A stretch of 64,000 bases of DNA, from assembly GCA_977020255.1 (NCBI GenBank), contig CDROCS010000014.1, forward strand, positions 248,001 to 312,000, given 5' to 3'. The stretch is from Obrimoposthia wandeli. Lineage: Eukaryota. Positions 53,778-64,000 of this stretch are shown one piece after another; positions within the stretch are counted from its first letter, which is position 1; each line of letters begins with the position of its first letter. The notes under the pieces are model-generated. The model had not been told where the DNA came from. It saw only the letters and a program-made list of their open reading frames with translations, and did not search any database. A program made the translations under genes and the position numbers.

Positions 53778-53895
53778 GTGAGATACTCCTGCATCTATTG
53801 GTGGTATATGGCCTTTGCCTCTGTGATTGAATAGATACGTCAGTAGATTATAAACGCATTATTTATTTGTCTCTCTTGCATGTTTTGCAATGCAG

Positions 53896-54577
53896 TCTTG
53901 TGCAACACAGTCGCGAGCAGAAAATCGTGCACTTGCTGGAGCGTCTGCAAACAGTCAATCCCGCCATAGACATGCGTAGCCTTGTCCTCGATAGCGTCTT
54001 CTTCAATCTGCGACCTTTGGAGCTGGCCCTGCTGCTGGGTCGTCTGGGCCTCGCCAAGGTCATCTGTGAGCTTCCTGGCGTCTACAGGGGCCCCACAAGT
54101 AGTCGGAAGCAGTGTGAAGGGCCACTCACCATGGAAACATATGATTTCTGTGAGTACTCGCCCTTCTACCGCGACAGCGACAGCAATAACGGTGACTCGC
54201 GCTTCTTCCTGAATCCGCTGCGGCTGCTCACCATGGTCAGCTACCAGAACTTAGCCACTCTCGAGATCTCTGGACTTGCCGGCCATCCGCTCGTCTCCTC
54301 GCTTCTCTGGACTCTGATCAAACGTAACCTGCCGCATGCAGTCTTCAATATCATCTCCACATTTGTGTCACTCTGTCTTTACCTATTCTTTCTCGCGCCC
54401 TCACATTATAGAGCCATCTACATCACCATCTATGACAATGCTCCCGACAATCACACTGCTCTGGGATCCACTACACGCTTCTGCAACGAAAACAGGTCTG
54501 TCTTCACTGCTGCCGCAATTAGCAATAGAAACACCAACAACAGCAACCAATTCGGAGATGTCCCCAGCGTATTCAAG
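53896..54577 (+). CDS. TRPV-like channel, coding exon 2 (last ankyrin, linker, S1)
   Basis: tgcag| acceptor, phase 2. LRPLELALLLGRLGLAKVI (TRPV last ANK), GP..METYDFCEY (GP..LYDL.E), HPLVSSLLW (EPLNRLLQDKW), then a TM segment. Best phase-0 donor is AAG|gcgagt. Confidence 0.82.
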
Positions 54578-55563
54578 GCGAGTAATAACTGCTTCATTTA
54601 GATTTATTGCAACTTCATTTCAAAAATAATCTCAGACAATAAAAGATCTCTGTACAGATGATTTATGAACCCCGTTGAGTCTGGGTTTTCGAAAATTTGC
54701 ATATTAGAACTACATAGAATGATAGGGAAACATGAATATTACTTTTTCGTTATCTATTCAGATCTGTTGATTGGTACTAAATCTACACATTTCAAACCAC
54801 CACAAAAAGCCAAAAATAAACCAGCTTTTATGTGAACGTTCTCACCAAAACAAGAGTTTAAGTCAGAAGTTAAACAACTTGCTCTACACCTACACGTTTC
54901 TTACATAACCACCCTCAAACTATTTCAACAGCATTGTTAGTCGTGGATACACTTGTAATGTTTATCCATGAAACAAACGATAATGGTTATTAATATTAGA
55001 AAACATTGACCGAATTGTACTGGAATCTAGCTTTCTTTTTTGTTTTAGTTAGTCAATTATTGTTAAAGCTCTTCGTTTAGTCGCCGATATTTTAGATTCA
55101 TATTTGAAAAAAAAATCCAAATATCAATACATTCCTTCGCACTTTTTATTGCAGGGATTGTATACAAAATTTCTTCACTTGAACGTTTCATGTTGACTTA
55201 ATCATTAAATTAAAAATAAAATAGGCTGTTTGGTGCTGATATAGGTAGCAGTGGAAAGTTTCATCATTTTAAAGGAAGTAACAGAAGTAACTAACATTAA
55301 ATATATTTGTAATCGAAAAATGAAGAAACTGATTTAAAATACTCACTTTAAAGCAATAGAATTTTCCTCTGCGAATTAAATTGAATTGATTTTTTTAATA
55401 TATTTCTATACATTTTTTACTCGATCGCTATCTCTCTCTTATAAGCAAAAATATCATCGCATAGAAAATAGCACTTTCCAATTTCAGTAAACACTATAAA
55501 TGCATATAGAATAGATATCTTAAAAATAGTGAATTCAGATATTTATACTGAAACTTCTCTCAG

Positions 55564-56023
55564 ATCGGTTACTGTAACTCTGCTTCTCACATTAAGGAAT
55601 GGATCAGCACTCTCAAAATCACGGATGATCGTCCAAATATTATTATGAACTGCCTATTTTCTGTCAAATACCTTCTGGATGTCATCGTCATGTTCTGGGT
55701 CTACTGGAAAAACAAGCTCTCAACCTGTGCCATGATCGATAGGAATGAATTTGTTGGTACCAAGAGCAAGCAAGTCATGCATATTTATTTTGCACTGTAC
55801 ATGAAGACCGCCATTCTTCTGCTCCTACTGTCACTGTGGGTCGTTTTGGCAATGGAAAAAAAAAGTATTACAGCGGGATTCTTCTGGAGACTTCAGCTGT
55901 TTGACTTCCTAAACATCCTGATGGCGGGTCTGCTCATCTTCGACTTTCTCTATCAGATCAGCGTACTACCCAGGATTGGAAGCGTCATTCAGAGACTTCT
56001 GAGATCATTCAGCGTCTTTACAG
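55564..56023 (+). CDS. TRPV-like channel, coding exon 3 (S2-S4 and S4-S5 linker)
   Basis: ctctcag| acceptor, phase 0; several hydrophobic segments; LPRIGSVIQRLLRSF (S4-S5 linker-like); donor ACAG|gttggt (phase 1). Confidence 0.8.
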
Positions 56024-56334
56024 GTTGGTACAAGACAAAATATCAGCCAAATACAGCATATACATTTCTCAGTAATTTAATGATTATTTATAATCAATCA
56101 GATCTATTAATTATGAAATTATACAGGATGTTCAATAAGTAGCTTTACAACTTTGAATTTAAATATTTTTATTATTTTATTTTACTATATTGCTTTGATA
56201 TACATTATTGCCTTAATTCATTTTTGCCATATTTTAACATAGGTAAATTAAAGGATTCTTGGGTAAGATATTAACAATACAAGAAAGAATAAAAGTTATA
56301 GAATACAAGTATAAGATCGAATTTTATGAAGTTT

Positions 56335-56800: not shown

Positions 56801-57050
56801 ACACGTACTTTTAATATGATATCTAATGAAATGTGCAGTCACATGTGCAATTCATTGAGGGAACGCATTGAATGATGCATACATGCCGAATGAAACATAT
56901 TGGAACATTTATAATACATATATGTACTCTTTATAAACTGTGCATCATGGTTCAATAATATATGGATTTTGAGCTATATTATCTTGAAATCATAAAATTA
57001 CTTATTGAACCCCGTATAATGTATAAATGTGCCACGACTCTTCAATTTAG

Positions 57051-57475
57051 GAATGTCAATCCTCTACTTCTGTTCTCTTATCGTTTTCGGAACCCTCTTC
57101 TTTAACCTGATGCCCTGTCTGCGATTCAAGCGCTATGTTCGTGGAAACAATCTCATTTCGAGCTGGATTGTCGTATTCCACTTGAATCTCAACATCGTGG
57201 ACTTCAGTGACGAAGAATTCGAGCGCATTTGGATCCTACAGGTTTTTCTTGTGTTGGTTTTACCGTTCTTTGTGCTGAACTTCATCATTTCAGTCATCAA
57301 CGAAGAAGTCAACACAGTCTCCAGTCACAGTGACTTGTTCTCGAGACTCTACTGCATGAACTACTTCCTCAGTAACGATGCCATCTTCTACTTTCCCCCG
57401 GTTCGGTGGTTCTGCATCAACATCCTGAAAATGAAGCCCAAAATTGTGAAAGTTCTTATTTCACGTGAAATTTAG
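57051..57475 (+). CDS. TRPV-like channel, coding exon 4 (S5, pore, S6, TRP-box region)
   Basis: tttag| acceptor, phase 1. VLNFIISVINEEVNTVSSHSDLFSRL matches TRPV [26 protein letters not shown]. The 3' end could be the stop at 57475 or a splice to unseen exons. Confidence 0.82.
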
Positions 57476-60410: not shown

Positions 60411-61778
60411 TTTACCACATGATCAAACGACTTTAATGATTAATAGATGATCAAATGACAAAACGTGTAAAATTGCTTCAAAAATAATATTAAAACAAAA
60501 CATTTTTTTAAAAAATTGGCGGGAGGCTCAATATTTATTTTTTTAAAATTAATTTACTACTAAAATATTTTCAGTCTAACTTAACTTACTTATTTGCAAA
60601 AATATAGGTGAACCAATAAAGTCAGAATGCATCAGAGTGAAAGAAGAAAAGAAGTAGATGGAAAACAATGAGTCGCTATTATTTTTTGTGATCTTATGTT
60701 GTAAAAGTAGAAAGTATTTAAAAAAATGACAATTAAGTTTTTAAGTTCGTATATAAAATTATTTTTATATTTATTTATATCATTTGTTGACGAAATGGAC
60801 TGTGGAAGCCATTTCTCTCAGTCATTCATATACATAAATATAAAACTTTACTCGTTGTTATATTAACGGAACAATGAGCAATGTGTACAATGCAATTTAG
60901 TTATGAACTGTAATTTTTACTATTGATGACGCTGTAACCCTAAAAAGATGATTTTTATAGAAAAAACATTAAATTATGCATAGCTTTCATTCGCCAACAT
61001 CCCCGATTGCGTTTCATTAAAATGTAGGTAATGGCTAATACCACCCAAAGCATTTAAATGAAGAGTTTATTAATGAATCATGTCTTGAATGACGAGGTAA
61101 CCTTGATTGTGGACGATTTGCAGCTTTGTGAAAATATTTTCCAATACAAATTTATTAACGTTACTTCAGCTTTTAGCCATTCTAAAACTTCTTAGATCGA
61201 ACCTAAGAAAACCAGAATAACGAACGAGCCCCTGGGTTAGAGCCATAAAGAGCCATAAACAAGCCCAATTTACTTGACTAATCATTAAGTTATAGTCCGT
61301 GTCAATAAACTAATATATGCGAAATTCTTTCTACGACTGTTTACAAAGGCGCAAATATAACAATCCCTAGAGAAGTGATCTTCAAAGACACTGAGATAAA
61401 TATCTAATAAATATATTTTGGATGATTAAGTAAAACTTGGAGATTAATTTTTGCATAAAATAAACATAAGTTTGAGGAAGTTATAAAATATTATGTTATT
61501 TTGTATGATGTCTGTTGAATGGTTGAATATTTTCAATAAGAAAGACTCAATTAATTCTGAAATATTTGATAAAATAGTTGTGCATACGTATCAATATATT
61601 GACGACATCTGACTCCAACAAACACAATGGTCAGTAATTCGTCCGTCTCATTTAGATCATTATTAACGACTCGAATAAATATGGAAATCTATGCTATATC
61701 GTTTATATTTGTATTCTTGTCATAACAACATGATCAAGAGTAGGTGGATGTGTCCGGTCTAATCCACACCCCCTCGCC

Positions 61779-61854
61779 CCTTGTCCTTTAAAACCGTGCA
61801 TGTGTGTGGAGTGAAATTTCACTACACACACATGCACGGTTTTAAAGGACAAGG
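61779..61854. repeat. Loopless palindrome with 38-bp arms and one mismatch
   Basis: ccttgtcctttaaaaccgtgcatgtgtgtggagtgaaa|tttcactacacacacatgcacggttttaaaggacaagg. Confidence 0.95.
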
Positions 61855-61928
61855 GAAGGGGTCCCAAAAATTTTTTCGCGCCTTTTGGTGCGAAAGGCTC
61901 GGGACTCGTATATGTCACAGACTAGCTT

Positions 61929-62364
61929 CGGTGATGGGCGAATGTCTCGCTCTTGTGTATATCACTAACTACCTCGGGTGATGGGCGAATGTCTCGCTCT
62001 GGTGTATATCACTAACTACCTAGGGTGATGGGCGAATGTCTCGCTCTCGTGTATATCATGGGCGAATGTAATATCACTAACTACTCGGCAATCGAATGTC
62101 TCGCTCTGGTGTATATCACTAACTACCTAGGGTGATGGGCGAATGTCTCGCTCTCGTGTATATCACTAACTAGCTTGGGTGATGGGCGAATGTATCGCTC
62201 TCGTGTATATCACTAACTACCTCGGGTGATGGGCAAATGTCTCGCTCTGGTGTATATCACTAACTACCTAGGGTGATGGGCGAATGTCTCGCTCTCGTGT
62301 ATATCACTAACTACCTTGGGTGATGGGCGAATGTCTCGGACTGCTGTATATCACAGACTTCCTT
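61929..62364. repeat. Tandem array, about 9 copies of a 47-bp unit
   Basis: Unit gggtgatgggcgaatgtctcgctct(g/c)gtgtatatcactaactacct(a/c/t); one rearranged copy near 62058-62095. Confidence 0.95.
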
Positions 62365-62490
62365 GGGTGATGGGTGAAAGTCGACGGGTGTTGGGTGAAA
62401 GTCGACGGATGATGGGGGAAAGTCGATGGGTGATGGGTGAAAGTCGACTGGTGTTGGGTGAAAGTCGACGGGTGTTGAATAAAAGTCGGT
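62365..62490. repeat. Tandem array, about 6 copies of a G-rich 21-bp unit
   Basis: Unit gggtg(a/t)tgggtgaaagtcgac; shares its first 10 nt with the 47-mer. Confidence 0.92.
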
Positions 62491-62769
62491 GTTAGGCGTT
62501 AGGCTGGTGGTGGTTAGTAGGTGGATGTGTCCGGTCTAATCCACACCCCCTCCCCCCTTCTGTCCTTTAAAACCGTGCATGTGTGTGGAGTGAAATTTCG
62601 TGTAGGTGTGTAGAAAACTTTTCTACCCCCCCATCTCAAACACTCAAAATAAATAAAAAATAATAACTCCATTTAACACCCTGTAAATTTTAAAATCTCA
62701 TAATGCTCCCAAAATTTTGATTAAAGTCCTGAGAGGCCAAAAAAATGGCCAAAGCGTGCCCTACGGGCC

Positions 62770-62837
62770 CGCGGTGGATCAACGAGTAATAAATACAGGC
62801 TCGCGGTGGATCAACGAGTAATAAATACAGGCTCGCG
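62770..62837. repeat. Exact 32-bp tandem duplication
   Basis: cgcggtggatcaacgagtaataaatacaggct at 62770 and 62802. Confidence 0.95.
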
Positions 62838-63059
62838 AAAAATTATACGCGAGAAAATGACCTTAACTTGACCTGAAATGAGTTCATTAATTTTTTATAC
62901 CATCCAAACATGTACATTTTTTTTTTTTTTTTTTTTAAAAAAAATATTACTATTTTAAATCCAAATATTAACAAAATTTAAGAAAATAACATAAATTCTT
63001 TGAATAATACGTTTTCATTGGACGTTAAACTTATACAAGAAAATCTTAAGAAAATAGTT

Positions 63060-63324
63060 ATATTTTCGAATAAAATATGTTTTATCCAATGACATTCCAG
63101 CATTCAAACATAGTTAAAAAATTGAGAAAAGCCTACTGATTTTCAAATAAATTATTTGAATACCCAGCCCTCATTGGACGACAAAAGTTTAGTGATATAT
63201 TTTCGAATAAAATATGTTTTATCCAATGACATTCCAGCATTCAAACATAGTTAAAAAAATGAGAAAAGCCTACTGATTTTCAAATAAATTATTTGATTAA
63301 CCCGCTCTCATTGGACGACAAAAG
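63060..63324. repeat. Near-perfect tandem duplication with a 137-bp period, carrying CCAAT/ATTGG boxes
   Basis: Copies start at 63060 and 63197 (atattttcgaataaaatatg...cattggacgacaaaag). Confidence 0.92.
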
Positions 63325-63408: not shown

Positions 63409-64000
63409 ATGTCAAATTTCAATAACGTCGATTTGGATGAAGAGACGGAGGTTCAGCTGTATGGAGATCTCTCTCCAGTACAGCAGCGAACGCCACCACC
63501 GGCGCAGTACATTGACTTACTTAGTCAAGACTCGTCGGTGGTGAGTGAAAGAGACGAAGGAGAAGCAGCAGCAAGAGCCCAACTGTTGCTAGAAGAAGAA
63601 CCGCCATTGGCCAGCTCAACTCCAAGAGAACAACCAATGAGCGTGCGAGGTGGGGTACAGAGATCCCAATATATCGATCTGACTAGTCAGGATTCGATAG
63701 AGAATTGGGAAGACTGTACTCCCAGGCTGAACACAGAAGCCAATCGTCCGGCAACTTCAGCAGTAGCAGCAAGGAGATCCAATCTCTTTGACAATTTCAA
63801 GGCGGCAATCAAATGCCCCTGGAAATTGATCCCGCTGTCTCAACCGGAGATAATACTGGCACCAGACTCAGACGAGGAGCTGTTTACTGATGACGTTCCG
63901 TCGGATGGGGAGGAGGAGTGGATACAGCCAAGTATCGGAGCCCCGGGAGCCAACGAGTCCATGGTTGCAGAAATGGATGAAGATGAGTGGGATCTGTTCA
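63409..64000 (+). CDS. Acidic, probably disordered protein N-terminus with repeated SIM-like motifs; runs off the window (at least 197 codons)
   Basis: MSNFNNVDLDEETEV...YIDLLSQDS...YIDLTSQDS...EIILAPDSDEELF...; no stop before 64000; GC-richer than its flanks; absent from the ORF track because it lacks a stop. Confidence 0.75.
   Translation, partial: MSNFNNVDLDEETEVQLYGDLSPVQQRTPPPAQYIDLLSQDSSVVSERDEGEAAARAQLLLEEEPPLASSTPREQPMSVRGGVQRSQYIDLTSQDSIENWEDCTPRLNTEANRPATSAVAARRSNLFDNFKAAIKCPWKLIPLSQPEIILAPDSDEELFTDDVPSDGEEEWIQPSIGAPGANESMVAEMDEDEWDLF

Follow-up and report, generated by a model that had tools for sequence, protein, structure and literature searches.

To our knowledge, the replication of integrated Mavericks (Polintons) has been modelled and, to date, not directly shown. 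Non-autonomous Polintons were reportedly described by Kapitonov and Jurka in 2006, and elements lacking polB or all genes are said to stay mobile. Parvovirus and poxvirus ends consist of terminal hairpins, which occur as flip and flop isomers. The following statements on published elements refer to the accessible parts of the cited texts. Vertebrate Mavericks are 12.7-24.6 kb long, begin with AGT or AG, have TIRs of 46-1,447 bp and are flanked by 6-bp TSDs (PMC8097293). Insect polintons possess gene-bearing TIRs of about 2 kb, and their polB-less copies are mobile (bioRxiv 10.1101/2025.02.07.637071). In the endogenous virophages and a PLV of Halocafeteria seosinensis, TIR palindromes adjoin the TSDs, and the replicases are not pPolB; a hairpin-priming model was left open (bioRxiv 10.64898/2026.07.28.741278). 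The accessible parts of PMC6431247 and PMC11296320 mention no such palindrome in Mavericks. For animal-type pPolB Mavericks, a literature search found no report of a palindrome in subterminal position, and an earlier description is possible. Already known are palindromes in the TIRs of protist virophages and PLVs; the case described here is a family-wide internal palindrome, together with minis and variable long TIRs.

The window under study comprises 64,000 nucleotides of Obrimoposthia wandeli (G000:C14:248001-312000, within a 1.35-Gb assembly). Two AGTAGG units, at 61739 and 62516, each form the left end of a separate Maverick, one element being nested in the other. The coding members of the family resemble animal Mavericks/Polintons in their size of 15.9-17.6 kb, TIRs, exact 6-bp TSD, AGT-type start, pPolB, rve, ATPase and a candidate DJR-like capsid (PMC8097293). 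They differ in the end motif, which is AGTAGG instead of (AGT)2 or (AG)3, in one end-type with a 39-42-bp palindrome and 47-, 21- and 5-bp arrays, in an ORF with a TBP domain, and in their abundance, a single genome containing about 12,000 exact ends. TIR palindromes as a subtype-wide trait and frequent nested insertions are shared with the Halocafeteria virophages and PLV (bioRxiv 10.64898/2026.07.28.741278, accessible part). In contrast to these, the palindrome begins about 40 bp inside the end and on pPolB-coding elements, and hairpin-free ends coexist. As in non-autonomous and polB-less polintons, elements without polB or without any genes are mobile, and TIRs, of about 2 kb in those polintons, may include coding sequence (bioRxiv 10.1101/2025.02.07.637071, accessible part). 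The outer TIRs differ in their 4.2-5.7 kb with satellite arrays and a PolB remnant, in a copy-specific length, and in the accompanying minis of 170-190 bp. Parvoviruses (AAV ITR) and poxviruses likewise have, close to the end of their linear replicon, an imperfect palindrome whose asymmetric loop can take two orientations. In the family described here, however, the palindrome is not terminal, near-equal flip and flop forms are absent, no Rep or resolvase was found, and integration occurs by an rve integrase with a 6-bp TSD.

Nested architecture of the locus

The initial annotation described an AGTAGG unit of about 83 bp occurring twice about 777 bp apart, with 47-mer and 21-mer arrays in between and a TGACCTTAACTTGACCT motif, 32- and 137-bp duplications and an open ORF downstream. 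All of these features are present (Table 1); the units are 96.4% identical over 84 nt at a spacing of 777 bp. Their interpretation as a direct-repeat pair of a single element had to be abandoned in favour of two elements with two TSD pairs. A separate partner end and a separate exact TSD belong to each unit, which makes the locus a nested insertion. The apparent direct repeat thus consists of two left ends, and the 47- and 21-bp arrays are subterminal repeats of the outer element. As such, this nested insertion of one Maverick in another is of an ordinary kind.

The left flank (60900-61738) matches the genome only once, and no empty or allelic site was found for it. From 62516 onward the sequence is a dispersed repeat with 2,636 candidates; the 40 copies scored are 90-100% identical, and nearly all of these 40 begin within a few bases of 62516. 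Among the contigs of four runs from one sample, none crosses the hairpin at this locus. Two contigs over the left junction extend 24 and 16 bases into the outer element (bridging rule: 31 bases). Further nested ends occur at loci L042 and L053. In a slightly GC-richer stretch of the window, open frames of 256, 196 and 151 aa are located at 53831-54601, 55552-56142 and 57020-57475 and have no Pfam match; a Pfam search covering eight window ORFs gave none.

Table 1. Features of the nested Maverick locus (window positions; other coordinates as labelled)
Feature	Position	Strand	Remark
Left TSD ATCAAG, outer element	61733..61738	+	Repeated after the right end, G000:C14:338213-338218
Terminus, outer element (AGTAGG..., C-tract)	61739..61777	+	Common to all end types of the family; 11,990 exact 31-mers
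Subterminal palindrome, loopless, 39-bp arms	61778..61855	.	Left end of the outer element
47-bp tandem array, 9.9 copies, outer left TIR	61905..62382	+	Mirrored in the right TIR, copy number differs
21-bp tandem array, 5.9 copies, outer left TIR	62365..62488	+	Mirror copy in the right TIR
Left TSD GTGGTT, inner Maverick	62510..62515	+	Second copy at G000:C14:326403-326408, at the point from which the outer TIR continues
Left TIR, inner Maverick, ~95 bp, no hairpin	62516..62610	+	Right end at G000:C14:326402
32-bp tandem duplication, inner left end	62762..62837	+	
TGACCTTAACTTGACCT motif, inner Maverick	62858..62874	+	
137-bp tandem duplication preceding the first ORF	63059..63324	+	Found in most other copies examined
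First ORF, inner Maverick, 265 aa, acidic	63409..64000	+	Open past the window edge; no Pfam family

The inner element, a coding Maverick

The inner Maverick is 15.9 kb long and extends from 62516 (C14:310516) to its inverted partner end at C14:326402. Both ends match over 97 nt at 96.9% and are flanked by GTGGTT. The assignment to a Maverick/Polinton end proved correct: PolB, integrase, ATPase and an inverted terminus with 6-bp TSD are located downstream, and this sequence is a coding Maverick with a second TIR and not an ordinary host gene. The pPolB gene is broken here; two of its several fragments match DNA_pol_B_2 (PF03175) at 1.2e-19 and 1.1e-4. The integrase, in two frames, matches rve (PF00665) at 9.7e-8, at the curated cut-off, and Chromo at 1.3e-5. 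An A32-type packaging ATPase was recognized by Pox_A32 (PF04665) at 1.4e-6 with 28.4 bits (cut-off 22.8). The genes are interrupted, and the window copy carries deletions relative to other copies. One deletion lies just upstream of the TGACCTTAACTTGACCT motif, which is 341 bp from the terminus in the window copy versus 520-603 in three other copies.

A double jelly-roll capsid may be encoded as well: in Atlas, a candidate ORF hit capsid clusters of DJR-like and NCLDV type at 0.94-0.97, with a recognition under the threshold of the tool, and the ORF had no Pfam or PDB matches. A 264-aa ORF between the integrase and the capsid candidate, considered as a minor capsid (penton) gene, reached 0.78 at best in Atlas and had no Pfam match. 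The His, Asp, Gln and Cys motifs of another, broken ORF may be those of an adenain-type cysteine protease; its PDB match to the viral protease S273R has an E value of 0.34, and Pfam yielded none. A TBP-domain ORF (PF00352, 6.5e-12) is located on the minus strand at L012:5241-5633 (G000:C14:324241-324633). A second one (PF00352, 2.9e-11) is present in a related Maverick (L090:2561-3259, plus strand). In a literature search, no paper linking TBP with Mavericks was found. The first ORF (63409-64000) contains two near-identical QYIDL(L/T)SQDS stretches, which resemble SUMO-interaction motifs.

The outer element, a non-coding Maverick derivative

The outer element starts at C14:309739 (61739 of the window), and its partner end is located 28.5 kb away at C14:338212. 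Without the insert, it measures 12.6 kb and comprises TIRs of about 4.2 and 5.7 kb, which flank 2.7 kb of non-coding DNA. Exactly past the inner element the left TIR continues, and it can be aligned with the right TIR, which has no interruption; the unique parts show identities of 97.2% and 99.4%. The outer TIRs also contain a 5-bp array of CACAC type (G000:C14:326409-326850 and 335950-337610), the length of which varies strongly from arm to arm, with about 75 versus 255 units.

Genes of its own for replication or integration are absent from the outer element, the longest interior ORF being 98 aa. A tblastn search with the inner ORFs revealed a PolB C-terminal remnant in both TIRs as the sole recognisable coding trace (L013:5909-6383, with its mirror in L012). 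The remnant shares about 50% protein identity with the inner PolB and derives from a second Maverick lineage. Its coding donor was not found; 19 other loci examined show the same non-coding context, and a genome search with the remnant gave 2,058 candidates, the best 40 of which were 96-100% identical.

As expected of a non-autonomous derivative, the outer element has the termini of the coding Mavericks, a 6-bp TSD and multiple dispersed copies. Relatives with matched TSDs were identified on contigs C1897, C1581, C1330 and C1682 (four of nine loci fetched). In the long-TIR non-coding relatives on C1897 and C1682, the TIR boundary varies from copy to copy, and hairpin ends are present.

Structure and distribution of the hairpin

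A loopless hairpin with one mismatch had been reported after the first unit only. The structure was confirmed, while the arms measure 39 nt and not 38 (61778-61816 and 61817-61855, mismatch 61809/61824). The best stems in 20 base shuffles of 61000-63000 were 9-12, and 2-kb bins elsewhere in the window reached at most 13; these stems are far shorter, so the hairpin is not a product of chance. At the outer right end, the palindrome recurs with arms of 42 bp, which enclose a 19-nt loop. Looped and loopless forms differ by one 25-bp tandem unit, the loopless form having one fewer. At the inner Maverick ends, the 25-bp units are present, whereas the second arm is absent. Stems of -51 and -55 kcal/mol were predicted for the outer ends versus -10 and -15 for the inner ends.

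Mapping of the terminal unit, recommended in the initial annotation, yielded 11,990 exact termini (31-mer) in the genome. The looped core was found 1,999 times as a 63-mer and 2,956 times as a 38-mer, the loopless core at 803 sites and the full fold-back with its centre on the second unit at 16; these exact matches in one assembly are lower bounds. Reversed-pattern controls had no match in the genome. The hairpin is an inherited trait of thousands of ends of the family in this genome. All 15 ends retrieved by a query that included the second arm contained it. Ends reached via the PolB remnant were looped (14 of 20), one-unit forms (three) or without the second arm (three), which gives a hairpin in 17 of 20. 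A coding Maverick of 17.6 kb (G000:C735:153303-170856, TSD AGCATG) carries hairpin and arrays at both ends; it matches the genes of the inner element at 86-98% and gives hits for PolB (4.5e-8) and rve (9.2e-9). Hairpin ends also cap short elements, and hairpin-free sibling ends of the same family are abundant, too.

The TSD-matched elements with one loopless end had a looped partner in four of four cases (C14, C735, C1715, C1897), and unit loss thus hits single ends. The TSD-matched elements on C1330 and C1682 have a hairpin at one end only. The partner search gave an exact TSD match for two of ten loci and a 5-of-6 match for two more in one set, and no partner end for five of nine loci in the other.

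The 11,990 exact termini correspond to about one in every 113 kb and thus to a very large Maverick expansion. Same-strand termini at G000:C3:34964, 68635 and 102316 are about 33.7 kb apart, which suggests a tandem segmental duplication or an assembly repeat. At some hairpin-free right ends, the subterminal block recurs in direct and not in inverted orientation (L107 end, G000:C868:82319; pairs about 117 bp apart).

Tests of hairpin-primed replication

The analogy to parvovirus and poxvirus hairpin ends failed the flip/flop test. The palindrome is not at the very end, as its arms begin 39 bp inside the TSD. Flip/flop replication had been considered because of a single inverted-loop end (L035), which was one of 15 ends in the first sample. 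The oriented motifs comprised 57 looped, 12 loopless and no inverted forms, and inverted loops were absent from 23 position-picked full ends and from 17 hairpin ends found independently via the PolB remnant. The possibility was ruled out by these counts (0/57, 0/23, 0/17, 1/15). In the C1218 element, the two ends agree in having an inverted loop; this case was set aside because a fold-back has rearranged the right end.

Homogenisation of the arms was likewise ruled out. Substitutions in 46 hairpin entries, nine of which were chosen by exact motif and others with the second arm as part of the query, were shared by both arms in no case and restricted to one arm in 36, which means no covariation; one mini entered the sample from both sides, and owing to this sampling the number of changes is biased low. 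A promotion of 25-bp unit loss by the hairpin was contradicted by the short, one-unit-less forms, which account for 803 of 3,759 hairpin ends (21%) versus 663 of 2,087 hairpin-free ends (32%), a difference in the opposite direction (Fisher p 4e-18); internal tandem repeats contain the control motif as well, and amplified lineages may exist among the short variants. The unit number simply varies in these TIRs. Most likely, Maverick replication is still protein-primed at the AGTAG terminus and not hairpin-primed.

Minis and inverted flank duplications

Seven of 30 position-picked looped cores were located in minis of 170-190 bp, composed of terminus, hairpin and inverted terminus; five of these had exact TSDs. 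Head-to-head terminus pairs occurred six times among the first 100 termini listed of 11,990, five with the exact hairpin motif. Across all fetched loci, units below 400 bp showed an exact 6-bp TSD in seven of 11 cases. Nine minis all differ in length and C-tracts, and no allelic site was found for the two minis tested. The minis are possibly collapsed elements (solo footprints), products of fold-back copying or mobile MITEs. The palindrome in each TIR supplies both ends with direct repeats, from which a collapse to a solo footprint could follow.

An inverted duplication of the flank around the hairpin was detected in two cases, from which no rate is derivable, on C1218 (522 bp at 95.0%) and on C8 (294 bp at 88.4%). 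Break-induced fold-back at short inverted repeats would fit such duplications.

Origin of the palindrome and alternative explanations

Very probably, a coding Maverick has inserted into the left end of a non-coding derivative of the same terminal type, and the hairpin is the inherited subterminal palindrome of one end-type; this palindrome likely goes back to an old fold-back with template switch and is probably carried along without a function. The 25-bp tandem units of the end contain the self-complementary GAAATTTC, at which a polymerase may have folded back. It would have recopied about 45 nt, creating the second arm, and then returned to the template. Both TIRs would then have received a copy of the new hairpin end, and coding as well as non-coding elements would have spread it, with the pPolB and integrase of coding relatives acting in trans on the non-coding ones. 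Single ends would lose one 25-bp unit by slippage, after or during insertion. Via direct repeats provided by the TIR palindromes, elements may collapse or fold back to the minis of 170-190 bp. Selection could account for the persistence of the hairpin in roughly a third of the ends (3,759 cores versus 11,990 termini, counted with motifs of different lengths).

A functional palindrome is an unlikely alternative, which overlaps with the passive-palindrome reading in that both include the nesting. Paired termini and two hairpins on the displaced strand would form a cruciform or T-junction acting as origin enhancer, resolution site or protein scaffold; hairpin ends would be advantaged, and a defective copy-back swarm would exist. 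Such a function is suggested by about 3,800 exact hairpin cores, by the constant arm length and position in every end seen, by the stable predicted stems of the outer ends compared with the inner ones, and by a long-TIR family with copy-specific boundaries (C14, C1897, C1682). Replication priming has, moreover, been proposed for the TIR palindromes of protist virophages and PLVs (bioRxiv 10.64898/2026.07.28.741278), which accompany non-pPolB replicases according to the accessible text, whereas the elements described here encode pPolB. Hairpin-free ends of the family have amplified equally well, the palindrome is internal and does not adjoin the TSD, few loops are inverted, the arms do not covary, and some TSD-matched elements have a single hairpin end (C1330, C1682). 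An evolution of an AAV-style structured end in a pPolB Maverick lineage is equally improbable. Fold-back in replication would then have generated a defective-interfering swarm with copy-back TIRs of several kb and a minimal unit of 180 bp, and about 4,000 fold-back sites of the genome would make inverted flank duplications.

The loopless hairpin, or all hairpins, could also be sequencing or assembly artefacts, i.e. fold-back chimeras or a dropped tandem unit. Independent sequence across the window hairpin is absent, and the pairing of loopless ends with looped partners (4/4) is also expected from a per-end error. This is nevertheless very unlikely, as thousands of loci, which have TSDs and flanks unique to them, show the fold-back in an identical position, the window arms differ by a substitution and 36 one-arm changes exist elsewhere, and one-unit-shorter forms are equally common at hairpin-free ends. 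Least probable, and refuted by two independent TSD pairs, is the original interpretation, in which one Maverick would have integrated along with a fold-back replication intermediate or a second copy of its terminus, and the locus would capture a linear-replicon end in a one-off snapshot. The 96% identity of the units and the hairpin after the first unit only would agree with it. It is opposed by the separate partner end and exact TSD of each unit. Moreover, the outer right end, 28.5 kb away, repeats the hairpin together with both arrays, and all of these recur across the genome, the hairpin at thousands of ends.

Implications for Maverick biology

About 12,000 ends of one family, of hairpin and hairpin-free types, constitute a natural experiment. 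The counts speak against hairpin priming in a pPolB element and bear on the model proposed for virophages and PLVs in 2026. If the minis and the flank fold-backs are hairpin products, Maverick ends would be a measurable source of solo footprints, comparable to solo LTRs, and of inverted duplications.
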